NCBI RefSeq assembly: GCF_001457595.1
Contig: NZ_LN831039.1
Coordinates: 3,840,001 to 3,872,000 of the forward strand
Direction of reading: 5' to 3'
Source: Mycolicibacterium smegmatis
GTDB lineage: Bacteria; Actinomycetota; Actinomycetes; Mycobacteriales; Mycobacteriaceae
DNA length: 32,000 nt
Made by a program: the position numbers and the translations under genes. The notes beneath the pieces were generated by a model, which was not told the DNA's origin, made no database searches, and saw nothing but the letters and a program-made list of their open reading frames with translations. Of the stretch, positions 3,001 to 30,699 are shown piece by piece. Each line of letters begins with the position of its first letter. Within the stretch, counting starts at the first letter, position 1.

Positions 3001-3266
3001 CTGAGCGGCAGCGCCAACATTCGGTTCTACAGATCCTCACCGCACGTCACGACCTGGCTCAGGGCGCCGACCTACAGGCCCCTGAGCCCACGCTCGGCTC
3101 GTACGGACCCACCGACCGGTTCCGCGCCGCGGTCCGTGAACACCGGATCGGCGGGGAGGGTGACATTCCCCACGTGACACCGCAAATCATCATCAAATAC
3201 GTCGCCGATCTGCAGCGCCTGGGGCTGCTCGATGCCCACCCCACATCCGCACCGCGGTCCGCGTAG
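1..3266 (+). CDS. Non-ribosomal peptide synthetase, 3' part (end of condensation domain, adenylation, PCP, terminal thioester reductase); 5' end lies outside the window
   Basis: The frame is open from nt 3 ([20 protein letters not shown] looks like the end of a C domain). A-domain core motifs: [72 protein letters not shown] motif [12 protein letters not shown]. Reductase motifs [10 protein letters not shown] and YGNSKWAGE. Stop TAG at 3264-3266. Confidence 0.9.
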
Positions 3267-12213: not shown

Positions 12214-14961
12214 CTACGGTGGCGGCAGTTCGCGGCTGCGTAGCTCCTTGCGGGATGCGACGCCGAGCTTGGAGAAGATCTTGCTCAAATGCCATTCGAC
12301 CGTGCGCGCACTGATGAACAACTGCGCCGCGATCTCGGAATTGGTCCGGCCCTCGGCGGCCAATCGGGCGATGTGGCTCTCCTGGCCCGTCAGCTCGACC
12401 ACTGGTCCCCCGTCGCGCCTGCGTACGGCCTCCCCGGTCGCTTCGAGTTCGCGCCGGCACCGATCGGCGAACCCTTCTGCGCCCATCTCGCTGAACATCT
12501 CCTCAGCACGGTGCAGCGCAGCGCGGGCATCCATCCGCCGCCCTTGTCGTCGTAGCCATTCCCCGTACACCAGATACGTGCGGGCCAGGTAGACGACGGC
12601 GGTGCTGCCCTCCAGATGCGCGATGGCGCTGCGGTATTCCGCCTCGGCCTCCGATCCCTCGGTCAGCAACGCCCGTGCACGTGCCGCAAGGCCCAGCGCG
12701 GTGGTGGTCCCGCCGGCCTCGGCACGTTCGACCAGCCGGGTGAGCGCCTCCCCCGCCGCTGCCGTCTCGGCGCTTCGCGAAGCCGCCTCGATCAACTCCA
12801 CGAGCACGAGGTTCGTGATGCCGATGTCGTCGTACGCCAGCGCGGCCCGGCAGCAGTTGAGCGCCTCGCCGTACTGGCCGAGGCTGTTGTGCAGTACCGC
12901 CGATGCGAACATGGCGGCGCCCACCGAGTAACCGTGGCCGTGGACCTTGTCCGCATCCTCGGTGATCGCCACGACGATTTCGCGTGTCGCCTTCTCCTGC
13001 CCCTGAAAGGCGGTCAACAGGGCGGTACCGACGCCGAGTTGAGGGCCGCCGATCGCTGTGGCGATGGCCTCTGCCTCGGAAAGGTGCGCCGCGGCGTCCG
13101 CCAACCGTCCGGAGAAGATCTCCGCCGTCGCGAGCGCACCGAGGGCCGGCGGAAGCGTGGCCAGTGCGCCGGCACCGGCGAGCAGCGCGTGCTGGCGCAG
13201 CGCGAGAGTTTCGAAGGCGTCGAAATCGAAGAGCTCCAGACAGATTCGCGTCGCCATGTCGTAATACTGCGGCTCCGCCGTTGCGTCGGCGTCGAGGCGT
13301 AGGAACTCCTGCATGGCCTTCTTCAACGACACGGCCCCGTCCACATATCCGTCGAGCATCCGAACGATCAGCCCGCACAGCAGGACATCAACCGCCCGCT
13401 GCGGCACGAGGGGCCCGACAAGCGGTCGGGCCGCGCCCGCGACGGACACTGCACTGGTCGTCGGGCCCGACATCCGGCCCGCCTGGATCGCCGCCGACAG
13501 CGCCTCGAACACGTTCTCGCGGGCGAGTTCTGGGGCTGCATCGGCCAGTCGCCCGGCGGTCTGCATCAGCAGCGGCACCGCATCTGCGGGGCGGGCCACC
13601 GCTCTGGCCCGCAGCCGGTCGATTCTGGCGGTCGTCAGGTCGTCGTCGGTCATCCGCCGGGCATCCACCAGCAGTGCCGCCGCCGACTGCGGCGCACCGG
13701 TGTCGAGTTTCGCCTGCGCGGCAGCGAGCGCACGCTCGACCCGCACCTGAGGGTCCGGGGTCAGACTGGATGCGAACGCCAGGAACGCCGCGGCCGCCGC
13801 GACCCCTCCCCGTTTGCGGGCGTCCCCGGCCGCGCTCTCCAACTGCGCGGCGACGTGCTCGTCGGGTCCGGCGGACGCGTGCCCCAGATGCCAGGCGAGG
13901 TGCTCGGTAGCGGAGGGCCCGTCGATGACGGCCGCCAGGGCCCGATGCGCCCTGCGGCGCTCGGCGGTACCGGCGTTTCGGTAGACCACTGACCGAATCA
14001 TGGGGTGGCGAAAGCACACCCGACTGTCGATCGAGATGAGATCGGCATCGACGGCCATATCCGCTGCGTCTTCGGGAAGACCGAGGTGGTCGGCAGCACC
14101 GGCCAACCATCGCGGGTCACCGGTGGGGTCTGCGGCGGCCACCAACAGCAGCGTCGTGGCGTGTGCGGGCAGATCGGCGAGGCGTCGATCGAAACTTCGT
14201 CGCAGCCGGCCGGCGAGCTGGTCGGCGTTCGCGAGCCCGAACCCGCCGGCCAGTTCCGCCGGTGTGAACACCCGGTGCAGCTCCAGTAGCGCCAGCGGGT
14301 TTCCGCGGGATTCGGCGAGAATGTTCTCACGCACCTGCTCGTCGATCTCCCCGGGCATCGTCCTGGTGAGCAGCGCCCGGGCGTCGTCGTCGGCGAGCCC
14401 GCGCAGTTGAAGTTCGGCGAGGCCGTTGAGGATTCGGTCCTCGCGTCGTTGGCACGCGGCAAACACGATCAGCGTCGGGTCGGCGTCCAGACGCCTGGCC
14501 GCGAAGGCCACCGCACGGAGTGACTCGGCGTCGACCCATTGCGCGTCATCGATCACACAAAGGGTCGGGCGTTCGGCCGATGCCTCCGACATCAACGTCA
14601 AGAGCGCAAGCCCGACGATCAACCGGTCCGGTGGGTCGCCGTCGGCCACGCCCAGCGCCACCTGCAGTGCGCGCTGCTGCGGCACAGGCAACCGGTCGAG
14701 GCGGTTGAGCAGCGGGGTGCACAGCTGGTGCAATCCGGCATAGGCCAGCTCCATCTCGGATTCGGAGCCACGGATCCGCAACACCCGGAAGTCGGCCGCG
14801 CGGGCGATCAGGTAGTCGAGGATGGACGTCTTCCCGACGCCAGGGTCGCCGCGCACGACGATCGTCGCGCTGTGCCCGCCACGTGCCTGGCTTAGCAGCC
14901 GCGCGAGCTGTTCCTGTTCACGATGTCTTCCGAGCAGACGGCGGGGACGGATTCCGGTCAT
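12214..14961 (-). CDS. LAL-type (large ATP-binding LuxR family) transcriptional regulator
   Basis: N-terminal Walker A ([12 protein letters not shown]), a long helical/TPR-like middle, and a C-terminal LuxR HTH ([45 protein letters not shown]). Start taken at ATG 14961 ([15 protein letters not shown]); the ORF is open to GTG 15009. Confidence 0.85.
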
Positions 14962-15054
14962 GCCGGCATGAACGTACGTTCCGCGAAAATCGATGTCAGC
15001 CGGTCGCACCGACTTCGCGCCGGCCGCACCCCGTTCACTCCGTCCAGGGTGCCG

Positions 15055-15799: not shown

Positions 15800-18376
15800 T
15801 CACCCCCGGGTCGCGGCACGGGTGTCCTCAGGTGTGGCGATCTCGGAGAGGAACTGTTCGAAGGTGGTCGGGGTCCGCGTTTCGTCGTTGCGGGGTTCGC
15901 GCATGATGATTCGGCGTTCGGCGACGTCGAGAGTCATCTGGGTGGTGCCGCTCGCCATGTGTTCGGAGAATCCGGCCGCCAGGAGATCGTCGTGCATCGT
16001 CTGTGCGTCGATCTCCTGACGCAGCGGTGGTGCGTTTGCGGACGGTCTCACCGGTCGCCATGAGCTCGGTCCGTGCGCGCTCGGCGAAGCCGGCCATTCC
16101 CATCGACTCGAACATGTCGAGCGCAATGCGCAGCTGTGTGCGGGCGTCGGTGCGTCGGCGTTCCCGGCGCAGCCATTCGCCGTAGACCAGGTGGGCTCGA
16201 GCGAGATCGGTGCGCAGGCGCGTGCGGCAGCCTCCACGAGTTCCAGCGCGGCCCACGTCGACAACGCCATGTCGATCTGGCCTGCCGCGCGTTCGGCCGG
16301 CGGCAGCGCGGCCGGGTAGTCACCGATGCCGTTGTGCAGCAACGCTTCGGAGTACTCTGCGGTGCTCAACCAGATTCCTTCACCGCGCGCCATGACATCC
16401 GCCATTGTGGATTCGATCATTGTCAACGTTTCGGCCCGTTGACCGCGCGTGGCCGCGAGCTGGACACCGGGTTTGGTGGCGAGCGCGTCTCCGGTTGCCT
16501 CTGTCACGGTCTTCAGCTCCTGAAGCAGCGCCGCCGCGGCGCCGAGCTCACCGGAAAGGGTGAGCCATACCGCACGCGAACCGAGCGCGAGCGGCAGCTC
16601 CGCCAGCGCACCCGCAGTGCGCGCGAGCTCGATATGCCGTGCCGACAGCACATCCCAGCTTTCGTCGTCCCAGATGTGCAGTGCCGCAATACCTGCCAGC
16701 CACAGAAAGCGACGTTCGCCGTCGGCTACGCCATGTCGTGCGCTGCTGACGGCGCGCCGCAGGGTGGGCACCGCCGCCGCATATCCGTCGGTGAAATATG
16801 TCGAGAACCCCTCTAGCAGAAGGGCAGTCAGCGTTTCCCGTGGCGGTATCGAGGAGGTCCGCGCCGCACGGGCCACATCTCGCACGCCGCCGCCGACTGC
16901 GAGTCGGCCCGCGAAGATCGCGGCCTGCAACGCTTCGAGGTATGTGGTGCGGGACAACTCGGCATCGACGGCCTCCAGCCGCCGGGCGGCCTTGAGCAAC
17001 AGCGTCGGGGCATCACTGCCCCGGTCGGTGACGTAGGCCAGCTGCGCGCGGACCAGGTCTGCGCGGGCGCCCAGGTGGTCGGTGAGCGGGCCGCCCTCGA
17101 CCACGGCCAGCAGGTCTGCGGCGGCCTCGAACGCGCCGGCCTGTGCCTTCGACGAGGACGCAGCCAATGCACGCTCGGCGCGCAGGACCGGATCGAGCGT
17201 CAGCATCGTCGCGCGCTCCAAGAACGCAGCCGCGGCGGCCAGCCCGCCGCGGGCCTGTGCACGACTGGCGCATCGTTCGAGTTCCGCCGCGACCGCCTCG
17301 TCGGGGCCCGCTGTGGCCTGCGCCCGGTGCCAGGCACAACGGTCGGGGTCACGCTCCGAGTCGGTCACCTCGGCCAGGGCACGGTGTGCCAACAGCCGGT
17401 CTCGCAGCGTCGCCGACCGGTAGATCGCCGAGCGCACGAGCGGGTGACGGAACCGCACGCGGATACCGAACTCGGCCAACCCGTCGGCCGTCGCGGGTTC
17501 GCCGGCGTCGGCGTCGATGCCCAGGCGGGCCGCGGCCCGCCACATCAGCGTCGGATCACCGGTCGGCTCGGCCGCGGCGATCAGGAGCAGCCGTCTGGTG
17601 TGCTCCGGCAGTGCGGCCATCCGGCGCTGGAAGCTCTCCTCGATGCGGCCCGACAACCGCACCGCACTGGGAATTCCGAAGCCGCCCGCCAACTCCCGGT
17701 CGGTCAGGTCACGCGGCAGCTCCATCAGAGCCAGCGGGTTTCCCCGGGTTTCGGCGATGATCTGATCGCGAATCCGCTCGTCGAGCGGTGCGTTCCACAC
17801 CGAGTCCATGAGCGCCGCGGCGTCCGCGTGGGGCAACCCGGCCAGTTCCAGCGTCGGCAGTTTCGCGATCTCGGGGTCGGGGGTACGGGTGGCCATGATC
17901 AGCGCGATGGGATCGGCGCCCAGCCGGCGTGCCACGAACGAGAGCACCCGGACCGATGCGCTGTCCAGCCACTGCACGTCATCGATGAGGCAGACCAGAG
18001 GCTGCTCCTCGGCGACGTGGGACAGCAGACTCAGCGCGGCCAGCCCGATCAGCAGCCGGTCGGGCGCAGTTCCCGCATTCAGGCCGAATGCGCTGCCCAG
18101 GGCCTCGCGTTGCGGATCCGGTAGATGATCGAGCCGGTCCAGCATCGGCATGCACAGCTGCTGCAGGCCGGCGTAGGCGAGTTCCATCTCGGATTCGATC
18201 CCCGCGGGCCGGATCAGCCGGTACCCCTCGGCTCGGCCGGCCACGTACTCGATCAATGCCGATTTGCCCACGCCCGGATCGCCACACACCACCAGTGCGC
18301 TGCCCGAGCCAGCACGGGCCGAGCGCAGGACGTCGTCGAGCACGCGGGATTCGGTTCGCCGGTCAATTAACTCCAT
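15800..18376 (-). pseudogene. Decayed paralog of the LAL/LuxR regulator (frame-disrupting internal deletion, no recognisable HTH)
   Basis: The N-terminus parallels the 12214-14961 gene ([32 protein letters not shown]). The conserved [26 protein letters not shown]...[17 protein letters not shown] block lies in a different frame (ORF 15828-16256). The switch is at about 16205-16230, where roughly 55-60 codons present in the paralog are absent. None of the three frames downstream of about 16025 shows a LuxR HTH. Confidence 0.7.
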
Positions 18377-18436: not shown

Positions 18437-19033
18437 CTACTCGCTGGATGGCGCGGCAAGACTAGTGCGTACCCGGCGGCGTCCTCGATGCAGGCGGGAC
18501 ATCACCGTGCCGATCGACACGCCCGTGGCCTCGGCGACCTGCTTGTAGGACAGCCCCACCACGTCCGCGTAGTAGATGGCCATCCGGTAGGTCTCGGGCA
18601 ATGCCCGGATCGCCGCGGTGAGCCGTCCGTCGGGAATGGACTCCAGCACGGCGGCCTCGGGGGTGCGCCACGGATGAGTCCGGCAGTCGGCCGGTGCCTC
18701 CTGGTAGAAGTCCGCGACGAGCAGCTCAGGAGGCCGGCGTGACCGGAGACGATGGCTGTCGACCCAGGCGTTGTGCATGATCCGGTGCAGCCACGCCGTG
18801 AGATTGGTGCCCTCGCGAAAAGTCCCGAACCCGGCGAACGCCCGCAACATGGTGTCCTGAAGAAGATCTTCGGCATCCTGGCGTGTGCCGGTCAGGTGCA
18901 GCGCCCCGATGAACAGGCGACCCTGCAACGGAAGTGTCTCGCGCTCGAAGCGGACGACGAGGTCCGGATCGGTCGGTGGTGATGGGGTCGGGTTGCGCGG
19001 CGATGCTGTCGGTTCGGCGAGTGGAGTGATCAC
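18437..19033 (-). CDS. ECF (sigma-70 family) RNA polymerase sigma factor, SigH-like
   Basis: Region 2: DAEDLLQDTMLRAFAGFGTFREGTNLTAWLHRIMHNAW. Region 4: LPETYRMAIYYADVVGLSYKQVAEATGVSIGTVMSRLHRGRRRV. From memory, this closely resembles the mycobacterial SigH pattern. Confidence 0.85.
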   Translation of the reverse strand: MITPLAEPTASPRNPTPSPPTDPDLVVRFERETLPLQGRLFIGALHLTGTRQDAEDLLQDTMLRAFAGFGTFREGTNLTAWLHRIMHNAWVDSHRLRSRRPPELLVADFYQEAPADCRTHPWRTPEAAVLESIPDGRLTAAIRALPETYRMAIYYADVVGLSYKQVAEATGVSIGTVMSRLHRGRRRVRTSLAAPSSE

Positions 19034-19099
19034 GGGGGATCCTCTCGGTGCGGGGCGGCCCCGATCGGGCGGCGGGTGTGTCCGTTCGAGGTTCCGCCC

Positions 19100-20200
19100 G
19101 ATCCGCTCTCACTCGCATCGGCAGGTGCCTAGCGGAAGTGGCTAGGTGTAGGAGGGCACGACGTTGGTGACGCCTACACGGAGCCTAGAGACTGGTGGCT
19201 GGCCGCCGGATCCACTGTGCGGCCGGTGGTAGTTGTAATGGATGTTCCAGATGGCTATTGCGGATGAGCGGGCGTCTTCGTTGGTGAACTCCCGAGCGTA
19301 GAGCAGTTCCTCCGCCAGGATGCGTTGGTAGCGTTCCACTTTCCCGTTATGGCGAGGCGTGTACGGCTTCGTGCGTTGGTGCCGAGCCCGCTGGCCGATG
19401 CTTCGGGCGAAGTCGCCGGACCGGTAGCAGGCTCCGTTGTCGGTGACGATTCGGTGGATGTGGATGATGCCGTGGGCGGCGAACCAGACCTTCGCTCGGG
19501 CGAGAAAGGTAGCCGCGGTCGCGCCCTTCTCGTCAGCGAGCGGCTCGGTGTAGGCAAGCCGGGAGTATCCGTCGATCGCCGAGTGCAGGTAGGTATAGCC
19601 AGCCTTGGCGCCGGCGGTCTTGGCGCGGTCGGCCGCGCGGTTCTGCGCGCTATCGCGGCCATGGATGCGCCATCCGCCGCCATCGGGGATGCGACCAACT
19701 TTCTTGACGTCGAGGTGGATCATATGGCCGGGCCAGCGGGCGGTGATCCGGCCCGGCTGGCGGTTAGATTCACCGTTCGGGTCGAGGAACCTTCGGTGAT
19801 TGAGGCCGAGGTGTGCCAGGTGCCGCGTGACGGTACGGCGGTTGAGCTGGATGCCCTGCTCGGACAGGTCATGTGTAATCCGCTGGGCTGACCACTTTTT
19901 CTCACGCCGACTGGTCTCGATCAGGGCGACTACGTGCGCTGGCGTTGCGGTGGGGCTGTGATGAGGCGTGGAGGAACGGTCGTGTAGGCCGAGTTCGCCG
20001 TGGCGTCGCCATCGATTGACCCACTTGCTCGCGCAGGCACGAGAGATGCCCATTTCCTTGGCTACGTGGGCGATGGGTCTGTTGCGGCATCGCTCGATGA
20101 GCCGATGGCGACCTTCGATCGTCAGCGGCGCGTTCTTGTGGGTCACTTTGTCGGACTGGGCGCGGATGCACGGCGCGCGGTGTCGCGGCTGTCGATGGCT
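19100..20200 (-). mobile_element. IS481-family insertion sequence (boundaries approximate, inverted repeats not confidently resolved)
   Basis: A single transposase ORF fills about 1 kb, as in IS481-type elements. The best candidate ends (19115-19143 vs reverse complement of 20141-20169) match at only about 14 of 29 positions, giving a 1055-bp element. No target-site duplication was found. Confidence 0.55.
19142..20146 (-). CDS. IS481-family transposase (HTH + DDE/rve integrase core)
   Basis: N-terminal HTH (IAHVAKEMGISRACASKWVNRW). DDE core: HLDVKK, LHSAIDGYSRLAY, TDNGACYRS, KPYTPRHNGKVERYQRIL. Confidence 0.9.
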   Translation of the reverse strand: MTHKNAPLTIEGRHRLIERCRNRPIAHVAKEMGISRACASKWVNRWRRHGELGLHDRSSTPHHSPTATPAHVVALIETSRREKKWSAQRITHDLSEQGIQLNRRTVTRHLAHLGLNHRRFLDPNGESNRQPGRITARWPGHMIHLDVKKVGRIPDGGGWRIHGRDSAQNRAADRAKTAGAKAGYTYLHSAIDGYSRLAYTEPLADEKGATAATFLARAKVWFAAHGIIHIHRIVTDNGACYRSGDFARSIGQRARHQRTKPYTPRHNGKVERYQRILAEELLYAREFTNEDARSSAIAIWNIHYNYHRPHSGSGGQPPVSRLRVGVTNVVPSYT

Positions 20201-20652
20201 TGGCGCACTTCGGTGATCGCCGCTCGGATCATGTACCCGTATGCATCGTCGTTGAGCGATGCGGTGTGATGCTCGGCGTTCTCGATGTGCTCGGTGGCCG
20301 CGTCGAACGAACCGAGGCGGCGGAGGTTGTCAGCGATATTGACGTAGAGACTGGGGTAGAAGCCGGCGACGTGAAGGCTTGCGTGGTACTGCTGGGCTCG
20401 ATCATCGCTGAGAAGGTTGGCGGCATCAAGGGCGCGGACGTCCCACATCAACGCGGCCGCAGGGTCTTCGTAGAGATCAGCCAGGTAGTGGGCAAGAGTG
20501 CAGCGATGGAACGGGTCGCCGGCTACGCCAATCTGCTTCCAGATAGCGAGCAATTCTTGTCGTGCAGACCCCTTATCGCCGTCGCGGCCGAGGACCACTG
20601 CTGTGGTGATGGCTTCCATTGTCGGGTCAGGCGAAGTGGCGTTGCTCGTCAT
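20143..20652 (-). CDS. Hypothetical all-helical (TPR-like) protein; the 3' end may run into the IS
   Basis: 169 aa with a helical-repeat-like composition (AHYLADLYEDPAAALMWDVRALDAA...). The stop overlaps the transposase ATG by 4 nt, so the last codons may be IS-derived. Confidence 0.5.
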   Translation of the reverse strand: MTSNATSPDPTMEAITTAVVLGRDGDKGSARQELLAIWKQIGVAGDPFHRCTLAHYLADLYEDPAAALMWDVRALDAANLLSDDRAQQYHASLHVAGFYPSLYVNIADNLRRLGSFDAATEHIENAEHHTASLNDDAYGYMIRAAITEVRQAIDSRDTARRASAPSPTK

Positions 20653-20721
20653 GAGAGTTGTTCTGTCCTTTCGGTTTAGAGGGTTACGGGCTTTCGGGCC
20701 GTCGTGCTGAGCGAAGTTCAG

Positions 20722-21762
20722 TCATGACAAAGAATTGAGGCACGGCATGGCGAGGGCGGTGAAGTCGCCATCGTCGGCTGATCGGATGGTGGCCGGTTGA
20801 TCGGCGCCACGGAGGTCGAGCATCAAGTCGCTGCCCAGTGCGTGGCTGATCGCCGGGTACAACGTGGTCAGCTCGAACCAGACGGTCAGGTCGGGGCCGG
20901 ATGCGTTTCCGTCGAGTTCCACCGCGCAGTCAGGCAGCACCACGCTCGGCTGGCTGGCAGCTATTCGAAGGCCGATCCTCTCCGGAGCCTGTTGCTCCAG
21001 TGCCTTGAGCAGGTCTTTCTTCTCGACGGTGACGCGATGTGTCACAGCGGGGAGCGAACTGAACATGAGCTTGTAGTCAGGAAAGGCCTCAGTCAGCAGA
21101 CGACAGTGCGCGACGGTGCTGTCGACCATGCGCAGGCCCAGGGTCTGTTCGTTTGCTTCCAGCGTCACGACGGGGCTTCGTCTGAGCCGCGAGGCTACGG
21201 CCCGAAGATCGTCTCCGGCGAGCGTCCCCGCCCAGGATGTGGCAGAGGGTTGGCTGGGCACCAGCGTCCGCGTGGCCAAGCGGTAGCGATCGGTCGCGGT
21301 CAGCGAGATGGTATCGGGATTCGATTCCAGGCGTACACCATTCAGGATGGGTAAGTCGGCATTGTGCGTCGTGGTAGCCACGACCTGGTCGATCGCTGCT
21401 GCGAGGACCGGGCCCGAGAGCGTGCACAGATTGAGGTGAGCCGCTTCGCCAAGGGAGGCCTTGAGCGTCGCGGCAGCCCGTTGCATCCCGGCTGCCTCGG
21501 CGGCAACCTTGGCTACGTGATCGTCGATCATTTGCGCCGCCTCCTGAGTGCCGGCGGAGAAGAATCTGCCGATGGCGGGCAGCGACATCCCGATCTCGCG
21601 CAGCTGACGCAACTGCAAGGCGCGGTCCAGCTGCTCCTCGCTATAGAGCCGGTATCCCGTGATTCGGTCGACCTGCTCGGGATTAAGCAAACCTGCATCG
21701 TCGTAGAACCGCAAAGCGCTGGCGGTCAGTCCGGCGAGCTTGGCGAACGCACCGATCGACAT
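20722..21762 (-). CDS. MerR-family HTH fused to two DNA polymerase III beta-clamp-like domains
   Basis: N-terminus MSIGAFAKLAGLTASALRFYDDAGLLNPEQVDRITGYRLYSEEQL is a MerR HTH. The rest carries clamp-like motifs: LPILNGVRLE..ISLTATDRYRLA, RLLTEAFPDYKLMF and C-terminal FTALAMPC. Compare E. coli DnaN LPILGNLLLQ..LSLTGTDLEMEM, KLVDGRFPDYRRVLP and YVVMPMRL (from memory). Start taken at ATG 21762; the ORF is open to TTG 21801. Confidence 0.75.
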   Translation of the reverse strand: MSIGAFAKLAGLTASALRFYDDAGLLNPEQVDRITGYRLYSEEQLDRALQLRQLREIGMSLPAIGRFFSAGTQEAAQMIDDHVAKVAAEAAGMQRAAATLKASLGEAAHLNLCTLSGPVLAAAIDQVVATTTHNADLPILNGVRLESNPDTISLTATDRYRLATRTLVPSQPSATSWAGTLAGDDLRAVASRLRRSPVVTLEANEQTLGLRMVDSTVAHCRLLTEAFPDYKLMFSSLPAVTHRVTVEKKDLLKALEQQAPERIGLRIAASQPSVVLPDCAVELDGNASGPDLTVWFELTTLYPAISHALGSDLMLDLRGADQPATIRSADDGDFTALAMPCLNSLS

Positions 21763-21939
21763 CAACTCTGGGTTGGTCACCCGAACATCGTCAGGCCTCA
21801 ACCAGCTTGAATGTCAACCGCGACGCGATCCGTCAACAACGTCTTGCCCCGCAACAGCTAGGCTTGCCGCTCCCGCATTTATCGCGTGCTCCGGCACGTG
21901 CCCTCACTGTTTGCGCCGTCGAGCAGCGTGCCCCTCGAG

Positions 21940-22387
21940 AAACGGCCTGCAGCAACCTGATTGACGATTGCGACTCAACGGTCGGGCTCGCGGCCTGGTA
22001 CGTCGAGAAGTTCCGCTCCTGGACCGACAACCGCTGCGAGCCCGATGATGCGCTCACCAAGGACGAGATGATCACCGACATCATGGTCTACTGGCTGACC
22101 GGGACCGCGCACTCCGCCATGCGCTTCTACAGCGAGTCCCGTGAGCACCCGGTCCACCTCGCCGCCGGCCGGCGGAACACACCACCTACCGGCGTCGCCA
22201 ACCTGCCCGCAGAGATTCCGATGCCGCCACGCGAATGGTGGAGCGCGCGTTCACCGTCGTTCATTGGACGGAACTCCCCCGCGGCGGCCACTTCGCCGCC
22301 TGGGAGGTGCCCGACTCGCTCGCCGAGGACGTACGGGCGTTCTTCCGACCGCTCAGAGCGTTCGAGCCGGCACGGCCGCGATCTTGA
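21940..22387 (+). pseudogene. Epoxide hydrolase (alpha/beta-hydrolase) C-terminal remnant, 5'-truncated and frameshifted
   Basis: Frame 3: STVGLAAWYVEKFRSWTD, DIMVYWLTGTAHSAMRFYSE, PTGVANLPAEIPMPPREW. Then, after a 1-nt shift at about 22238, frame 2: VERAFTVVHWTELPRGGHFAAWEVPDSLAEDVRAFFRPL, stop 22385-22387. The N-terminal half, including the nucleophile region, is absent. Confidence 0.7.
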
Positions 22388-22474
22388 ATTCACCCACGTC
22401 GCATCCGTTCGTCATGTAACCCTGAGCGGGATGCGGTGCAGAGACGCACCAGCGAACACAACAGGACGGGCGCC

Positions 22475-23249
22475 GTGACCCAAGGTTCAGGACGACTTGC
22501 AGGAAAATCGGCGGTGATCACCGGCGCCGCGTTCGGCATCGGCCGGGCGAGCGCTGTGCTCTTCGCGCGCGAGGGCGCGCGGTTGACGGTGACCGACATC
22601 CAAGGCGAGCCACTGCTGACGTTCGCCGACCAACTGCGCGACACCGGGGCCGGAGGTCGAGGCGATCATCGGCGACGTCTCGGTCGAGGACGATGCGCGC
22701 CGGATGATCGCGGCGGCAACTGAGCGTTTCGGCCGCCTCGATGTGCTGGTGGCCAACGCCGGCATCATCCCACTCGGCGACGCGCAGGAGGTGACGACCG
22801 CCGACTGGGACGACGTGATGGCCATCGACGGGCGCGGCATGTTCCTCACGTGCAAGTTCGGGATCGAGGCGATGTTGGCGACCGGCGGCGGCGCCATCGT
22901 CTGCTTGTCCTCGATCTCCGGTCTGGCCGGGCAGAAGCGGCAGGCGGCTTACGGGCCTGCCAAATTCATCGCCACCGGGTTGGCAAAACACCTCGCGGTC
23001 GAGTGGGCCGACCGGGGCATCAGGGTCAACGCCGTCGCCCCGGGCACGATTCGAACCGAGCGGGTCAGGCAGATGCAGGAAGAGCCGGGCGGCGCGGAAT
23101 ACCTGGCGACGGTCGAGGCCATGCACCCGATGGGTCGCGTCGGTGAGCCTGACGAAGTCGCCAGCGCCATCGCCTTTCTCGCGTCCGACGACGCGTCCTT
23201 CATCACCGGCGCCGTGCTGCCCGTCGACGGGGGTTACCTGGCGCAGTAG
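22475..23249 (+). pseudogene. SDR (FabG-like 3-oxoacyl reductase family) with a 1-nt frameshift
   Basis: Frame 2 from GTG 22475: GKSAVITGAAFGIGRASAVLFAREGARLTVTD...LRDTGA. An extra G at about 22652 moves the reading to frame 3: EVEAIIGDVSVEDDARRMIAAATERFGRLDVLVANAG...YGPAKFI...VLPVDGGY. Confidence 0.75.
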
Positions 23250-25065: not shown

Positions 25066-25272
25066 TCAGTGTTGGTGTACTTCGCAGGCGCAGTACATGT
25101 TTCGACACGTGTAGCAGGCAGGCATGCCCTGGCAGCGCGGGCAGACGTCGCAGCTGACCGGCTCGGTGTGCCGGTGGGCATCCACGGAGTTGTACGATTC
25201 GCCGCAGTGGTAGCACGGCGGACGCCCGCTGTTGTCGTCCAATTCGCGAAGCTGATCGGTGGCCGAGTTCAC
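25066..25272 (-). CDS. Cys/His-rich miniprotein, 68 aa (zinc-ribbon or metallothionein-like)
   Basis: The GTG start overlaps the pqqE TGA (GTGA). Sequence: MNSATDQLRELDDNSGRPPCYHCGESYNSVDAHRHTEPVSCDVCPRCQGMPACYTCRNMYCACEVHQH, with 9 Cys and 5 His in the last 49 residues. Hand-counted GC3 is about 82 percent, which is coding-like. It ends 11 nt before the antiporter ATG. Confidence 0.5.
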   Translation of the reverse strand: MNSATDQLRELDDNSGRPPCYHCGESYNSVDAHRHTEPVSCDVCPRCQGMPACYTCRNMYCACEVHQH

Positions 25273-26399
25273 CGTCGTACCTGCAGGGGCAGCTGCGTCC
25301 GGGTGCGTCCGGGATTCGGTCGGGGAATCATCACACCGTCGTGCGGCAGCGTCGGGTCGTTGGCTGCCGCCACCGCCGTCTCGACCAGCCCGTGATCCGG
25401 GGAGAGATGACAGACGGGGTCGGTGCGGGCAGCGTCGCCGGTGAGCGCGAAAGCCTGGCAACGACAACCGCCGAAGTCGATCTCGCGACGGTCGCAGGTG
25501 CGGCACGGGTCGGGCATCCAGTCGTCGCCGCGGAACTGCCGGAAGAGTGGCGACTGCATCCAGATCCACTCCAGTGAATGCCTACGTACGTTGGTACCGG
25601 GCAGGCTCAGGCCGCGCGCCAACTCGTGGGCCGCTGGGCACGGCAGGGCTTCGCCGTTCGGCACCACGGTGAACTGGCGGCGTGCCCAGCCGGCCATGCA
25701 GGGTTTGGGATACTTCTCGTAGTAGTCGGGGATGACGTAGATGATCTCCATCCGGTTCCCGAGCCGGCCTCGAGCCGCCCGCACCACCGTCTGCGCGCGC
25801 TCCAATTGGTCTCTGCTGGGCAGCAATTCGGCGCGGTTGCGCCCCGCCCAGCCGTAGTACTGCGTGTTGGCCAGCTCGATCCGGTCGGCCTCCATCACGG
25901 CTGCCATGTCGAGGATGGCGCCGATCCGATCGATGTTCTGCCGGTGCAGCACCACGTTCAGCGTGAGCGGCCAACCCAGCTTCTTCACCAGCCGCGCGAC
26001 GTCGTGTTTGCGCTCGAACGAGGCGGTGCCGGCTATCCGGTCGGACACCTCTGGCTGATCGGCCTGAATGCTGACCTGGACATGGTCGAGCCCCGCGTCG
26101 CGCAGCTGCTCGGCGCGACGGGTCGAGAAGCCGAGCCCGCTGGTGATCAGATTGGTGTACATGCCGAGCCCGTTGGCACACCGCACGAGGTCGACGATGT
26201 CGTGGCGCTGCATGGGCTCGCCGCCCGAAAGGTGTACCTGAAGTACGCCCAGCTCGGCGGCCTCGGCGAACACCCTTTGCCATTCCACGGTGGACAGCTC
26301 GTCGCGATAGTTCTGCAGCGCAACGGGATTGGAGCAGTAGGGGCAGTGCAGCGGACAGGCATAGGTGAGCTCGGCGAGCAACGCATACGGCCTATCCAT
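25269..26399 (-). CDS. pqqE: PqqE, radical SAM/SPASM PQQ biosynthesis enzyme
   Basis: [25 protein letters not shown] (CxxxCxxC) and a SPASM-type Cys cluster near the C-terminus. ATG 26399 overlaps the pqqD stop by 8 nt. Confidence 0.9.
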   Translation of the reverse strand: MDRPYALLAELTYACPLHCPYCSNPVALQNYRDELSTVEWQRVFAEAAELGVLQVHLSGGEPMQRHDIVDLVRCANGLGMYTNLITSGLGFSTRRAEQLRDAGLDHVQVSIQADQPEVSDRIAGTASFERKHDVARLVKKLGWPLTLNVVLHRQNIDRIGAILDMAAVMEADRIELANTQYYGWAGRNRAELLPSRDQLERAQTVVRAARGRLGNRMEIIYVIPDYYEKYPKPCMAGWARRQFTVVPNGEALPCPAAHELARGLSLPGTNVRRHSLEWIWMQSPLFRQFRGDDWMPDPCRTCDRREIDFGGCRCQAFALTGDAARTDPVCHLSPDHGLVETAVAAANDPTLPHDGVMIPRPNPGRTRTQLPLQVRR

Positions 26400-26670
26400 G
26401 ATCGATCTCCATCCCGTGTTTGGCGACGAGGTCGGCGACGAAGCGTCGGACGTCGCCCTCGGCGATCTCGTCGTAGCGACTGCCGAGCTCGACCTGGATC
26501 TCCGCGATGGTCCGCCGGGCGTCACACAGCTCCACGATCGCCACGCCGGTGTCGTTGAGCACCCAGATCGTCTCCGGCGAGAGCAGGGCGTACTGCCCGC
26601 GCGCGGCGTCGAACCTCATCCGGACGTGGGGAGCCAGCCGCGGCCGGGCGGCGTCGTCAGCGATTTCCAT
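26392..26670 (-). CDS. pqqD: PqqD, PQQ biosynthesis peptide chaperone
   Basis: 92 aa from ATG 26670 ([42 protein letters not shown]...). It overlaps the pqqC end by 14 nt. Confidence 0.85.
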
Positions 26671-27373
26671 AAGCCTGGTCGATCGCATCGAGCATGCTCC
26701 ACAGCACGTCGCACTTGAAGGACAAGGCCGACAGCGCGGCCGTCTGGGTTTCCTGCGTGACGCAATGCCGTCGCACCACCTCAAGACCGTGTTCGGAGTC
26801 GCGGGGCGCCTGGGTGATGCGAGATCTGAAGTAAGAGAGTTCTTTCGGGTCGATCCAGGTGTAGTGACGTTCGAACGCCGCGAGCCGCTCGGCCATCAGG
26901 TCGGGTGCGAACAGCTCGGTCAGCGACGAGGCCACCGCCTCCAGCCATGGCCGGGTGCGGGTGAAGTTCACGTAGGCGTCGACGGCGAAGCGCACGCCCG
27001 GCAGCAGGTGTCGTGCGTCTTCGACCTCCGCCCTGGTCAAACCGACCGCTTCGGCCAGTCGCAGCCACGCCTCGATTCCCCCGGTTCCTTCGGTCGTGCC
27101 GTCGTGGTCGATGATTCGCTGGACCCAACGGCGCCGTATCTCACGGTCCGGGCAGGTGCTGAGGATCGCTGCGTCTTTCCGGGGGATGTTCACCTGGTAG
27201 TAGAAGCGGTTGGCCACCCACCCGCGGATCTCCTCGGGGCTGCACTGCCCGGTGTTCATCCGACGGTGGAAGGGATGCAGGTGGTGGTAATCCTTGACGT
27301 GCTCGCGAAGCGCTTCCTCGAACTCGTCGGGCGTCAGTGCCTGGGTTACTGCTCCTCGCGCCAGCGGTGCCAT
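26657..27373 (-). CDS. pqqC: PqqC, pyrroloquinoline-quinone synthase
   Basis: 238 aa: [46 protein letters not shown]. The SD GAGGAG spans the pqqB stop. Confidence 0.9.
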
Positions 27374-27382
27374 GGTTGCTCC

Positions 27383-28285
27383 TCAGATCTCCAGCTCGAG
27401 CCCGTCAGCGGCGACCTCGATGCCGTGGCGGTCGAGAATCCGCCGCTCCGGGGAGTCCTCGAGCAGGACGGGGTTGGTGTTGTTGATGTGGATGTAGACC
27501 TTGCGGTCGATCGGCAGCGATGCCAGCAGCTCGAGGCTGCCGCCGGCACCGGCGATCGGGACATGTCCCATCTCGCGTGATGTCTTGCCTGCCAGGCCGA
27601 GCCGGGGCATCTCGTCGTCGCGCCAGCAGGTGCCGTCGATCAGCAGGCCCGAGCAGTCGGCCAGTTCCTCGAGGACCTCCGGGGTCAGCCGTTGCACGCA
27701 CGGCAGGTACACCAGGCTGCGGCCACTACCTGCGTCGGTGAGTCGGTAGCCCACCACCCGGCCATGTGTCGCGGCTCCCGGGAATCGCATGGACTTGTCG
27801 GTGGGTACGTCGAACGCGCGGTACGACAACCCGTGTGATCCGTCGTCGAGCGGGACCTCGACCCCGGGCACCACCGGCTGCCACTTGACCGGGCAGTACG
27901 CCTCCAGTGTCCTGAGTACCCCGGTCCCTGTGGTGAGGGTTTCGTGCACCGACTCGGTCGCGTGGACTTCGAGACCACGCCCTTCCCGCATCAGCAGCAG
28001 TCCGAGGGTGTGGTCGAGTTCGGCGTCGGTGAGCAGCACAGCCTGAAGCCGGACCACTCTGCCTTCGTCGGGGTGCAGATCCGGGAAAGCCTCGATCTGG
28101 GATTGGATGTCCGGCGAGGCGTTGAACAAAAACCACTGTTTCCGATCAGCACTCACCGCGATCGACGACTGTGAGCGTGCCACGCAGGGTCGTGCGCCGG
28201 TCCGCACCGCACGGCACTGGGGACACCCGCAGTTCCACTGCGGAAACCCGCCGCCCGCTGCCGATCCGAGCACCCTCACCCACAC
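27383..28285 (-). CDS. pqqB: PqqB, metallo-beta-lactamase-fold PQQ biosynthesis protein
   Basis: MWVRVLGSAAGGGFPQWNCGCPQC, a typical PqqB N-terminus. 300 aa, GTG start. Confidence 0.9.
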   Translation of the reverse strand: MWVRVLGSAAGGGFPQWNCGCPQCRAVRTGARPCVARSQSSIAVSADRKQWFLFNASPDIQSQIEAFPDLHPDEGRVVRLQAVLLTDAELDHTLGLLLMREGRGLEVHATESVHETLTTGTGVLRTLEAYCPVKWQPVVPGVEVPLDDGSHGLSYRAFDVPTDKSMRFPGAATHGRVVGYRLTDAGSGRSLVYLPCVQRLTPEVLEELADCSGLLIDGTCWRDDEMPRLGLAGKTSREMGHVPIAGAGGSLELLASLPIDRKVYIHINNTNPVLLEDSPERRILDRHGIEVAADGLELEI

Positions 28286-28366
28286 AAGCGATCACTTCCT
28301 TCGTAGGAATACACGGCGGGGCGCCGGGCCGACCCGACCCGGCCCGACGCCCTCGCGGTGAGGCGA

Positions 28367-28480
28367 CTAGTCGTCGCCGTCCAGGACGGCCACGTATGCG
28401 GTCACCTCGGCGGAAACCCGGATCTCGGCGAACGTGGGACGCTCCCACTTCTGCAGGGCGCCTGCGGACTTCTTCTCCAT
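28367..28480 (-). CDS. pqqA: PqqA, PQQ precursor peptide (37 aa; below the ORF-track size cutoff)
   Basis: My own translation of the minus strand: MEKKSAGALQKWERPTFAEIRVSAEVTAYVAVLDGDD. It has the conserved W..P...EI.V..EVT.Y pattern (E-x3-Y crosslink pair). ATG preceded by GGAAGAGAG. Confidence 0.85.
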   Translation of the reverse strand: MEKKSAGALQKWERPTFAEIRVSAEVTAYVAVLDGDD

Positions 28481-28529
28481 GCTGTTCTCTCTTCCTTCTC
28501 TCGGGTTATGCGGATGCGTGGCGGACAGT

Positions 28530-30215
28530 TCAGTCGGGCAGTGTGAAGGCGATCAACGCGCTGCCGTGGCCCGCGCCGAGCATCCCGGGGAGGATGCCCT
28601 CGAGCCAGCCGCCCCAGCCGACCGGTACGACGACGTACTGCTTGCCGTCGACACTGTAGGTCGAACAACTTCCGTGATGCCCACTGCCACAGTTGAATTC
28701 CCACAACTTCTCGCCGGTGTTGGCATCCAGTGCGGCGAACTCGCCGGTCGGGGTGCCTGCGAACACCAGGTCTCCCGCGGTGGCGAGAACCGATGCGGCC
28801 ATCGGGTAGTCGAGACGCCAGCGCCACTTCTCCTCACCGTGGGAGTCGAACGCGCTCACCGAGCCCGCCATGTCGTCGATGTCCACCTGAACGGCAGCAC
28901 CCCAGTACGGGATACCCTCCCGGAACTCGCGTCGACGGCGGGTGGCCGTGGCGCCCACGTCGGCGACGGGAACGTAGAACATGTCCGTCTTCGGGCTGTA
29001 CGCCGCGTGCGTCCATTCCTTCGCCCCGGCCGGTCCCGGGTAGAAGTGGACGGGCTCACCCTCCTTGTCGGGATACTTGCGCGGCGTCACCTTGCCGTCG
29101 CGGGTGATGACACCCCAGTCGATCCGATCCACGAACGGGGTGACGTGCTGCAGTTCCCCGTTGGTGCGGTCCAGCACGAAGAAGTAGCCGTTCTTGTCGA
29201 AGTGGCCGAGCAGCTTCTTGCCGTCCCGCTCGAAGAGCGTCATCTCCATCGTGGAGTCGTAGTCCCACAGGTCGTGCGGGGTGAACTGGTAGTGCCACTT
29301 GATTTCTCCGGTGTCGACGTCGAGCGCGACGACGGAGTCGGTGTAGAGGTTGTCGCCCTCGCGCACTGCACCGTCGAAGTCGGGCGCCGGGTTACCGGTG
29401 CCGGCGTAGTACAGGTTCAGCTCGGGGTCGTACGTCCCGGTCACCCAGTGGTTGGCACCACCACGCTGCCAGGCCTCGCCGTCGGCAGGCCAGGTCTCCG
29501 AGCCCGGCTCCCCCGGCTTGGGAACGGTGTAGGTGCGCCACAGGTGCTCGCCGGTCTTGAGGTCCCAGCAGTCGATGTGTCCACGCACGCCGAACTCGCC
29601 ACCGGCGCTGCCGGTGATCAGCGTGTTCTTGACCACCAGCGGAGCCAGGGAGGCGCTCTCACCGGCCCGTACGTCGCCGATCGTCTTCTCCCAGACCATC
29701 TCTCCGTTGCTGGCGTCCAGCGCGAGCAGGTGGGCGTTGGGTGTCACGAAGAAGACCTTGCCGTCGGCCACCGCGCAGCCACGGTTGACGTTCCCGCAGC
29801 ACAGCGACACGTCGAAGGGCACTGCGTGCTTGTAGCGCCAGAGCTGCTGGCCCGTTTTCGCGTCCAGCGCCCAGAACCAGCCGTCCCACCCGGTGACGTA
29901 CATGACGCCGTCCACGACCAGCGGGCACGCCTCGAACGCATAGGTCGACGCCCCCGCCATGTGCCCGGAGGCCCCTGCCTGGAACACCCACGCCGGACCG
30001 ATGCGCTTGACGTTCTCGGTGTTGATCTGGTCAAGGAGGCTGTACCGCTTGCCGTCATAGGCCCCGTAATAGGTGAGCCAGTTGTGCGACTCCGCCCGCG
30101 CATTGAGGAGGCGGTTGTAGTCGACATCGGTTGTCACCGCGGGCGCGGTTCCCGGAATGGGGCTCAGCGCCGACTGATTGATCGCTTCGCCGGCGTCGAC
30201 GTATTCAACGGTCAT
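28530..30215 (-). CDS. PQQ-dependent alcohol/methanol dehydrogenase, XoxF-like (D-x-D type), no signal peptide
   Basis: 561 aa eight-bladed propeller quinoprotein. Key features: vicinal Cys SLCCGNVNRG (C139-C140), GGEFGVRG (E207), GTGNPAP (N275) and PHDLWDYDS (D318, D320; codons 29262-29264 and 29256-29258). ATG 30215 is preceded by a strong SD (AGGAAGGG). The N-terminus MTVEYVDAGEAINQSALSPIPG is not hydrophobic. Confidence 0.9.
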   Translation of the reverse strand: MTVEYVDAGEAINQSALSPIPGTAPAVTTDVDYNRLLNARAESHNWLTYYGAYDGKRYSLLDQINTENVKRIGPAWVFQAGASGHMAGASTYAFEACPLVVDGVMYVTGWDGWFWALDAKTGQQLWRYKHAVPFDVSLCCGNVNRGCAVADGKVFFVTPNAHLLALDASNGEMVWEKTIGDVRAGESASLAPLVVKNTLITGSAGGEFGVRGHIDCWDLKTGEHLWRTYTVPKPGEPGSETWPADGEAWQRGGANHWVTGTYDPELNLYYAGTGNPAPDFDGAVREGDNLYTDSVVALDVDTGEIKWHYQFTPHDLWDYDSTMEMTLFERDGKKLLGHFDKNGYFFVLDRTNGELQHVTPFVDRIDWGVITRDGKVTPRKYPDKEGEPVHFYPGPAGAKEWTHAAYSPKTDMFYVPVADVGATATRRRREFREGIPYWGAAVQVDIDDMAGSVSAFDSHGEEKWRWRLDYPMAASVLATAGDLVFAGTPTGEFAALDANTGEKLWEFNCGSGHHGSCSTYSVDGKQYVVVPVGWGGWLEGILPGMLGAGHGSALIAFTLPD

Positions 30216-30228
30216 TCTTGTTCCCTTC

Positions 30229-30699
30229 CTAGGGTCGCGGCTGATCGGGACGGTCGAGACGGGCCTCCGGTGGCACTTCGCCGAGAACGACGATCGCGGC
30301 GGTCAGACCCCGGCCTTCGTCGTTGCCGCCCGGCGAGCTGTACCAGTAGTAACCCGGGCCGTCGAGGTGCAGGACCGCCTTGCCCTTCGAGTGGTTGAGG
30401 AGCCAGAGGAACTTCCTGTCCCCGTTGCTCGGGAACAGCGCCGCGTGTGTGTTCTTGTCGTCGTTGATGACCGTCAGCTCGATGAAACCGCCGTGCGGCA
30501 TCACCAGAATCGCCGGATCCCAGGCGATCTCGTCCTCTTTGATCCGGATCGTCGCCTCCATCGTGCCATCGGCCCGTTCGGTCGCGGTGGCGATGGAACC
30601 AGTGCCCAGGACCCGGCCGAGCGCTGCGTGATTCTGCTTGTCCAAGCCGAGTTCGCGCAGTAGGTCGGATCGCTGATCTGGCTGATCTGTGACCGTCAT
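30229..30699 (-). CDS. Cupredoxin-like protein lacking type-1 copper ligands (no Cys)
   Basis: 156 aa. The pattern ATIRIKEDEIAWDPAILVMPHGGFIELTVINDDKNTHAALF ... GKAVLHLDGPGYYWYSSPGGNDEGRGLTAAIVVLG aligns by eye with cupredoxin-domain proteins (...HNF... / ...YxFxCxxPGHxxxGM). Here the Cys, second His and Met positions read S, G/N and L. The protein contains no Cys at all. Confidence 0.55.
   Translation of the reverse strand: MTVTDQPDQRSDLLRELGLDKQNHAALGRVLGTGSIATATERADGTMEATIRIKEDEIAWDPAILVMPHGGFIELTVINDDKNTHAALFPSNGDRKFLWLLNHSKGKAVLHLDGPGYYWYSSPGGNDEGRGLTAAIVVLGEVPPEARLDRPDQPRP

Follow-up and report, generated by a model that had tools for sequence, protein, structure and literature searches.

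The 32,000-nucleotide stretch of Mycolicibacterium smegmatis DNA analysed here (contig NZ_LN831039.1, positions 3,840,001 to 3,872,000; referred to as the window, with coordinates counted from its first letter) carries a minus-strand gene whose product was confirmed to be a MerR DNA-binding domain joined to two of the three domains of the replication clamp DnaN. This protein is referred to as MerR-clamp. The MerR-clamp gene and a partner gene directly downstream are carried as cargo by an IS481-family transposon, at the position that resistance genes take in sister elements. The reading that we tentatively favour, as possible rather than probable, is that MerR-clamp would be a ligand-switched, self-activating MerR sensor of molecules that bind the clamp pocket, and possibly also a decoy for them, residing within a cargo transposon. 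The gene and its parts are as follows.

20722..21780, minus strand: MerR-clamp gene, 352 amino acids (aa) from GTG 21780, probably leaderless
21553..21780, minus strand: MerR winged helix-turn-helix (HTH), Pfam MerR_1 E 1.5e-16
21454..21549, minus strand: long helix, residues 72-103 by AlphaFold2 (AF2) secondary structure, presumed MerR dimerisation coiled coil
21058..21435, minus strand: clamp-like domain corresponding to DnaN domain II, with L140, T157, R159, Y160, R161, L162 and P228 of pocket subsite I
20725..21039, minus strand: clamp-like domain corresponding to DnaN domain III, with the C-terminal strand (L337, M339, P340) and an altered subsite II (E297, T300)

The HTH was matched past the cut-offs by two Pfam families, MerR_1 at residues 1-69 (E 1.5e-16) and MerR (E 1.4e-10), and its nearest solved relatives by sequence were CueR, TipA, GlnR and BmrR, together with BrlR and EcmrR. 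The AF2 monomer has a 32-residue helix at 72-103, presumed to be the dimerisation coiled coil, and the Pfam MerR-DNA-bind match at 51-101 was weak. For the remainder of the protein, Pfam DNA_pol3_beta_2 matched at 116-229 (E 2.3e-10, 41 bits against a cut-off of 27) and DNA_pol3_beta_3 matched weakly at 282-341 (E 0.05). Residues 114-259 align to positions 128-271 of the NCBIfam dnaN model TIGR00663, with a score of 51.6 bits that lies far under the equivalog cut-off of 137.65. A profile of 61 family members matched mycobacterial DnaN structures over approximately DnaN residues 140-380 (E 4e-19). The AF2 model built on the same 61-member alignment (mean predicted local distance difference test score, pLDDT, of 90) consists of the HTH, the helix at 72-103 and two beta-alpha-beta modules of the clamp type at 110-235 and 242-338. 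When this model was compared to the PDB with Foldseek, DnaN ranked first (E 8e-18, about 255 aligned columns, 24% identity, root-mean-square deviation of about 3 A). From the profile, AF2 and Foldseek matches, the module was deduced to be DnaN domains II and III, beginning at the domain I/II boundary; domain I is missing from both the AF2 model and the family profile. These data bear out the preliminary description of this DNA, made from the letters and reading frames, which had proposed a MerR HTH, a helical linker and about two DnaN domains. Among the profiles that it named, MerR_1 and DNA_pol3_beta_2 match and DNA_pol3_beta_3 does so weakly, and the clamp fold was contradicted neither by profile searches (E 4e-19) nor by structure prediction (pLDDT 90, DnaN first in Foldseek). 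The motifs that it quoted, LPILNGVRLE...TATDRYRLA, FPDYKLMF and the C-terminal AMPC, align to E. coli DnaN 155-178, 241-247 and M362-P363, respectively.

The conservation of the clamp pocket was assessed with the pocket residue lists for E. coli beta taken from PMC11139829. The subsite I residues L155, T172, R176, P242 and M362 and the subsite II residue P363 were identical in 61 of 61 family members. In the same members H175 was replaced by Y or F and G174 by R, and V247 and V360 remained hydrophobic. The residues of mycobacterial DnaN at positions 175 and 174 are, we presume, likewise F and R. Among representatives with 28-35% identity, T172, R176, P242, M362 and P363 were still invariant, and L155 and L177 each differed in just one relative. 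Over 74 sequences, conservation of at least 95% was found for 16 of the 241 module columns, and these included five of the 11 subsite I positions (Fisher p = 2.4e-4); the remaining conserved columns mostly flank pocket residues or lie in the strand beside the C-terminal strand. Selection on the module is thus directed at the hydrophobic half of the protein-binding pocket of the clamp (subsite I). The earlier suggestion that the module might "capture clamp-binding proteins" is in keeping with subsite I being its most conserved part. The griselimycin macrocycle binds subsite I and fills subsite II only partly, mainly through shape and backbone hydrogen bonds (PMC11621423). For E. coli beta, the canonical pocket is also a binding site of single-stranded DNA (ssDNA; PMC11139829).

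The upstream DNA of 79 non-duplicate loci was compared to that of the window, giving 80 sequences. The control elements in the window are as follows.

21787..21817, minus strand: MerR-type promoter, in the same indel-free register in 80 of 80 sequences
21812-21817, minus strand: -35 element, TTGACA
21793-21811, minus strand: spacer of 19 nt
21787-21792, minus strand: -10 element, GACGAT
21796..21814, minus strand: operator dyad, ACATTCAAG CTG GTTGAGG, overlapping the -35 element and the spacer

Free of indels throughout, the 80 sequences have in common TTGACC at the -35, the 19-nt spacer, a -10 hexamer whose second and sixth letters are A and T, and a start codon 6 nt further on; their consensus is TTGACCTTCGAGTTGGTTGAAGCCCGATGAT. 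The family form of the dyad is ACCTTCGA-N5-TCGAAGG, and four to eight of its eight positions pair in 78 of the 80 sequences. It was matched only once in the 32-kb window, against 0.05 matches expected by chance, and elsewhere it occurred once per locus and always at a promoter of the MerR-clamp type. No standard promoter with a 16-18-nt spacer was found in 19000-22000. A 19-nt spacer with a dyad in such a position is the hallmark of MerR-activated promoters, and the dyad centre and geometry are, as we take it, equal to those of the CueR-controlled copA promoter (PcopA). Since the hallmark is present, the MerR-clamp protein appears to control its own operon.

The same register was used to place the start codon. 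The minus-strand open reading frame (ORF) at 20722..21762 encodes 346 aa from an ATG and is open upstream as far as TTG 21801. The codon lying exactly 6 nt past the -10 hexamer is GTG in 75 and ATG in 5 of the 80 non-duplicate sequences, and in the window it is the GTG at 21778-21780; many deposited homologues begin with MTxPELMSIG. On the basis of this offset and these homologue N termini, the true start is most likely GTG 21780, giving a protein of 352 aa. Thus, the reading frame given earlier for this gene was retained, while promoter spacing and homologue N termini favour GTG 21780 over its ATG 21762 start. A start codon 6 nt after the -10 would imply a leaderless mRNA.

The transposon that carries the gene was delimited by its ends, and its parts are as follows.

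19147-21856: whole element, 2710 bp, IS481-family cargo transposon
21857..21862, minus strand: left target-site duplication CCTAGC (NCTAGN), identical to 19141-19146
21830..21856, minus strand: left terminal inverted repeat (IRL), TGTTGCGGGGCAAGACGTTGTTGACGG, 27 nt
20143..20652, minus strand: partner gene, 169-aa all-helical protein resembling tetratricopeptide repeat (TPR) proteins, with C51 and H55 invariant
19142..20146, minus strand: IS481-family DDE transposase, 334 aa, Pfam LZ_Tnp_IS481, HTH_32, rve and rve_3
19147..19173, minus strand: right terminal inverted repeat (IRR), GCGTCACCAACGTCGTGCCCTCCTACA, 27 nt
19141..19146, minus strand: right target-site duplication CCTAGC

IRL and the reverse complement of IRR match at 21 of 27 positions. 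The first 20 nt of IRL are identical at 17 positions to TGTTGCGGGTCATGACGTTG, the inverted repeat of TnRErm46, an IS481-family transposon of Rhodococcus equi with NCTAGN duplications and a TAG stop supplied by the target (PMC6794481). In the window the transposase TAG stop (19142-19144) also falls within the target duplication, and the transposase GTG start overlaps the TGA stop of the partner gene (GTGA). About 25 loci have a related IRL at this offset, and complete copies with perfect NCTAGN duplications were present at other sites (loci L090, GCTAGA; L024, CCTAGG; and L019, CCTAGC). Transposase homologues or remnants occupy the same junction in 17 other loci of Actinomadura and Streptomyces (duplicates included), and the same holds for the transposase of Mycolicibacterium conceptionense, which has a 94%-identical copy with its own duplication at a different site. 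Annotated plasmid-borne IS481-family transposases that share 63-77% identity with that of the window are coupled in a like manner to erm(36), cmx, erm(46) or a gene for an NAD(P)H-binding protein; in the cmx element, too, the cargo is upstream of the transposase and in its orientation. The cargo status of the MerR-clamp gene and its partner was established from the unit's own inverted repeats, its target duplication and its TnRErm46-like layout. The gene had previously been placed "next to an IS element"; that description is replaced by one transposon comprising regulator, partner and IS481-family transposase within inverted repeats and a CCTAGC duplication. The insertion sequence as a chance neighbour was rejected on the strength of the remnants at the same junction in 17 loci and of the unit's own inverted repeats and duplication. 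No match to an empty insertion site for the window's element was found in metagenome contigs, and the transposon may already have a name in ISfinder.

In 70 of 83 loci the partner gene comes directly after the regulator in the same orientation, so that the partner is conserved as a neighbour but is not always adjacent. Its family comprises about 990 clusters and matches no significant Pfam family, with only weak TPR matches. The AF2 model is an eight-helix TPR-like bundle (pLDDT 88.5) that gave only generic TPR matches to PDB folds (E > 0.01), and both termini are conserved yet predicted to be disordered. A search with the partner profile listed only close relatives among its best 120 matches. 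No clamp-binding motif of the QLxLF type was found in the flexible regions of partner sequences. In a regulator subfamily with 33% identity (Kitasatospora and Streptomyces plasmids), a partner homologue still follows (37% identity, E 4e-16). The two genes are separated in Nocardia yamanashiensis: a partner with no regulator before it comes straight after the same promoter and operator, and the regulator is at another locus, an arrangement consistent with action in trans. The split in N. yamanashiensis and the pairing in the 33%-identical subfamily suggest that the partner is the regulated output and that the pairing is functional and old. In L084 (3955-4010) the solitary partner lies behind an intact promoter and operator and apparently arose by deletion of the regulator coding region; the regulator without a partner is at L039. 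A metagenomic partner homologue (P0199, in L086 at 2358-3230) is fused to a domain of the glyoxalase/bleomycin-resistance type and has a glyoxalase-like gene upstream, a faint hint at small-molecule binding. No other conserved genes were found within 8 kb on either side of the MerR-clamp loci: an apparent neighbour cluster of 41 loci was rejected as an antisense ORF over the 5' end of the MerR-clamp gene, and another of 20 loci was antisense to the transposase.

The fate of the three genes was followed in 81 non-duplicate loci and the window (82 sequences).

Regulator: intact in 81, partial or a fragment in 1, absent in 0
Partner: intact in 65, partial or a fragment in 4, absent in 13
Transposase: intact in 2 (the window and L061), partial or a fragment in 14, absent in 66

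The cargo proteins have diverged to about 50% identity with their invariant residues kept. Because the cargo stays intact while the transposase decays, and because these residues are kept, the pair is judged to be under long-term purifying selection that is independent of transposition. This persistence argues against a function that serves only the transposon.

The family is large, with at least 939 protein clusters at 90% identity, and relatives were confirmed in at least 482 stretches of species-representative genomes. There were 181 representatives at 50% identity with E <= 1e-10, and all those checked are MerR fusions. Among the matches inspected, the family is confined to Actinobacteria. 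Two apparently stand-alone two-domain clamp proteins were checked and both proved to be artefacts, one of a contig end and one of a frameshift in a MerR fusion; the latter, a 240-aa clamp-like protein (L097, 128-1163), illustrates that architecture counts based on length need care. Association with plasmids was limited to 4 large Streptomyces or Kitasatospora plasmids. The pair of the divergent subfamily on a Kitasatospora cathayae plasmid (L087, 2757-6747) is immediately preceded by genes for an AAA ATPase and an HNH endonuclease, whereas in L088 a near-identical pair has transposases on its flanks. No phage matches were found in 50,697 phage records, and the sole PADLOC match was an HTH-only similarity to mad1, so that the defence role entertained in the preliminary description received no support from either source. 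The lower-GC block that it noted is present but mild (62-64% against 65-72% nearby). In other genomes the GC content of the cassette tracks that of each host (mean difference -0.3%), which makes base composition a weak argument for a recent foreign origin. In databases the proteins are entered either as "MerR family transcriptional regulator" or as "DNA polymerase III subunit beta family protein". The earlier statement that the architecture is without a functional description still holds for the searchable full-text literature, where none was found for a MerR-clamp fusion; in the literature searched, the sole mention of DNA_pol3_beta_2 outside DnaN was a cargo-gene label in Frankia integrative elements.

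The data above establish the fold, the conservation of the pocket, the layout of promoter and operator, the structure of the operon and transposon and the persistence of the cargo. From these we infer a scheme of how the protein would bind DNA and activate transcription, what its ligand would be, how it could act as a decoy and what part the partner would play. One MerR-type promoter just inside IRL would drive the regulator, the TPR-like partner and the transposase in series. A regulator dimer on the spacer dyad would hold this promoter poorly active, and binding of an effector would realign the -35 and -10 elements and switch transcription on. The effector domain would be beta-clamp domains II and III without domain I; since domain I is absent, canonical ring closure would be impossible. 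The retained subsite I, which in DnaN is the site for clamp-binding motifs and griselimycin-type cyclic peptides, would be the sensor site, and sensing of a pocket-plugging molecule is proposed because it has been kept in the effector domain. The ligand would most likely be a clamp-targeting peptide antibiotic, with a clamp-binding protein or peptide as the alternative. Activation would raise the level of a pocket-bearing protein that could soak up the ligand, as in TipA or in the amplification of dnaN in griselimycin-resistant mycobacteria, and would also raise the TPR partner and, while its gene is intact, the transposase. The peptide antibiotic was ranked first because of the resistance-carrying sister elements, the actinobacterial family, the TipA precedent and resistance by target amplification. 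Griselimycin resistance arises via dnaN amplification (PMC5694481), and TipA-class MerR proteins are described as minimal autoregulated drug-resistance systems (PMC7762955). The full form of this proposal, a transposon-borne inducible decoy that would sense peptides of the griselimycin/mycoplanecin class, overproduce itself and titrate the drug off DnaN as a mobile resistance, is considered doubtful.

Several observations weigh against the sensor reading. In the window's subfamily, subsite II is altered (N320 to E and Y323 to T), with the canonical N320/Y323 in some deep relatives, and the affinity for QLxLF motifs or griselimycin may therefore be low. A MerR dimer normally needs effector domains near its DNA-binding domains, and here the module has two domains and 240 residues. 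No conserved internal start for a TipAS-like, sensor-only product was found in the alignment near the start of the clamp module. The partner, for which Pfam and PDB fold matches gave no recognisable resistance function, is more conserved in Streptomyces (about 63% identity) than the regulator (about 50%); a decoy does not need the partner and leaves its role unexplained. The ranking of the peptide antibiotic is not strong, owing to this gap in the role of the partner and to the altered subsite II.

Four other explanations were weighed against the ligand-switched sensor. A target-mimic toxin-antitoxin or addiction system, in which a SocB-like TPR toxin would block the host clamp pocket and MerR-clamp would act as a decoy-pocket antitoxin and autoregulator that stabilises the carrier DNA, matches the gene order, in which a DNA-binding autoregulator precedes a small partner on a transposon, and also the survival of the pair beyond transposase decay. 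It gains from the pairing of partner and regulator even at 33% identity and from the binding of SocB toxin to the same DnaN pocket (PMC5694481), and the distribution of solitary genes is in its favour: 13 loci have the regulator without the partner, and the one solitary partner that was found belongs to a species with a solitary regulator as well. However, the partner is an ordinary TPR-like scaffold for which neither a toxin or enzyme signature nor a PADLOC match was found, a QLxLF-type motif is lacking in the flexible region of either partner sequence, the activator-type promoter with its 19-nt spacer is unusual for toxin-antitoxin operons, and subsite I does not vary between subfamilies even though both ends of their partners are very different. 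This explanation was deemed unlikely. The pocket could instead read free clamp-binding tails of host polymerases or repair proteins, or ssDNA, and switch on a TPR adaptor as an endogenous sensor of replication stress or DNA damage. Such a role would agree with the pocket conservation, with the binding of ssDNA to the canonical pocket of E. coli beta (PMC11139829) and with the canonical subsite II of some deep relatives; yet the cassette is patchy and moves by transposition, unlike a core-genome component of a stress response, and no repair or replication genes are linked to it within 8 kb. The role is regarded as unlikely.

The position of the operator 12 nt inside IRL, together with a transposase that has no standard-spaced promoter of its own and is translationally coupled to the operon, raises the question of whether the pair serves the transposon. 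MerR-clamp would then bind beside IRL and its pocket would hold or recruit transposase or replisome proteins, coupling transposase expression or transpososome assembly to the state of replication, and transposase peptides from nine insertion sequence families do bind the beta clamp (PMC3971601). IS481, however, is outside the families whose peptides bound (PMC3971601), and a reading of the transposase sequence revealed no clamp-binding-like motif. Furthermore, the cargo pair is intact in 50 of 82 sequences without a transposase, most of which also have no recognisable inverted repeats, sister elements with 63-77% identical transposases hold unrelated cargo (cmx, erm) in the same slot, and TnRErm46 transposes actively (PMC6794481). 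Service to the transposon is accordingly regarded as improbable. The preliminary description had also raised a partial or alternative ring, in which the four clamp-like domains of a MerR dimer would encircle or grip DNA. The module is a genuine clamp fold, but domain I, which forms half of the DnaN dimer interface, is absent, and the residues conserved in the family cluster at the peptide pocket and not along the inner helices. To our knowledge, all clamps are six-domain rings, which four domains cannot close. On the domain III side, the region of E. coli I272/L273 would be shorter and polar here, an inference only, drawn by eye from the helix register. No support for the ring was found, and it is regarded as very improbable.

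MerR regulators are the textbook case of transcription switched by small molecules. If the sensor reading is correct, an effector domain has been copied from an essential replication protein, with the pocket kept and the ring-forming part removed, as a new type of sensor built from a target. Griselimycins are produced by Actinobacteria and also act on them, and the erm and cmx genes of sister transposons make a protective or resistance role plausible and provide a route of spread. Should the pocket bind clamp-targeting drugs, the element would represent mobile resistance or sensing against a tuberculosis drug class whose reported resistance is the rare and costly amplification of dnaN, and decoy resistance would already be present in fast-growing mycobacteria, Rhodococcus, Gordonia, Nocardia and Streptomyces. 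Should it bind proteins, MerR-clamp would regulate transcription by reading the clamp-binding code.

The surroundings of the transposon in the window were also inspected. On the plus strand, the ORF at 21807-22478, which abuts the left end of the transposon, has no Pfam match at E 1e-5 and a weak codon bias; it has the appearance of a leftover gene fragment in degenerate DNA. A short-chain dehydrogenase (22436-23249, plus strand) is split over the overlapping frames 22436-22723 and 22704-23249, probably as a frameshifted pseudogene or through a sequencing error. Beyond the right end, a gene for an extracytoplasmic function (ECF) sigma factor (18437-19033, minus strand) starts 108 nt past IRR in the same orientation, and read-through into it from the MerR-controlled operon is conceivable. 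Two large AAA_16 regulators adjoin (15800-18376 and 12217-15054, both minus strand); a LuxR-type GerE domain is present only in the second, and the first may be truncated or frameshifted at its C terminus. A cluster related to pyrroloquinoline quinone (PQQ) lies at 25272-30302 on the minus strand and comprises a PqqE-like radical S-adenosylmethionine/SPASM protein, the ORFs 27386-28291 and 26660-27382, and a PQQ-dependent dehydrogenase.

Among the closest known systems are the MerR sensors TipAL/TipAS, BmrR, the SkgA/AlbA type and EcmrR, with which MerR-clamp shares an N-terminal MerR HTH, followed by a presumed coiled coil and a C-terminal domain predicted to bind a ligand. As in the TipAL/TipAS-type sensors, the operator lies in its own promoter, so that it would control its own synthesis. 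It differs in that the effector domain is a two-domain beta-clamp fold instead of a TipAS or GyrI-like domain, and in that, unlike TipA, it has no evident short sensor-only isoform, while a separate TPR-like gene adjoins in 70 of 83 loci. With DnaN it shares the fold of domains II and III, at 24% identity to mycobacterial DnaN, and it keeps subsite I and the C-terminal M-P. Unlike DnaN, it has two domains and not three, forms no canonical ring, carries a fused sequence-specific DNA-binding domain, has an altered subsite II in the window's subfamily and lies outside the dnaA-dnaN-recF context. GriR, the extra self-resistance DnaN of griselimycin producers, is an example of a DnaN-derived protein serving as a resistance determinant against clamp-targeting peptides (PMC11621423). 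SocAB of Caulobacter, a small protein that acts via the DnaN pocket together with a neutralising partner (PMC5694481), lends a possible logic for a pocket decoy; no evidence of a relationship to SocA or SocB in sequence or fold emerged, although no direct comparison was made, and toxicity of the partner is only hypothesised here.

The transposon itself compares closely with TnRErm46/ISRe46 and the cmx and erm(36) elements, with which it shares the DDE transposase (63-77% identity) and an inverted repeat that starts TGTTGCGGG and matches at 17 of 20 positions. Further features in common with TnRErm46 are the 6-bp NCTAGN duplication, the target-derived TAG stop and a cargo that lies upstream of and overlaps the transposase start. 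In contrast to TnRErm46 and its sisters, the cargo in the window is MerR-clamp with a TPR-like protein and not a recognised resistance gene, and in most genomes it outlives the transposase. What is new in the system is the effector domain of the MerR regulator; the IS481 transposon that carries it as cargo is of a known type.

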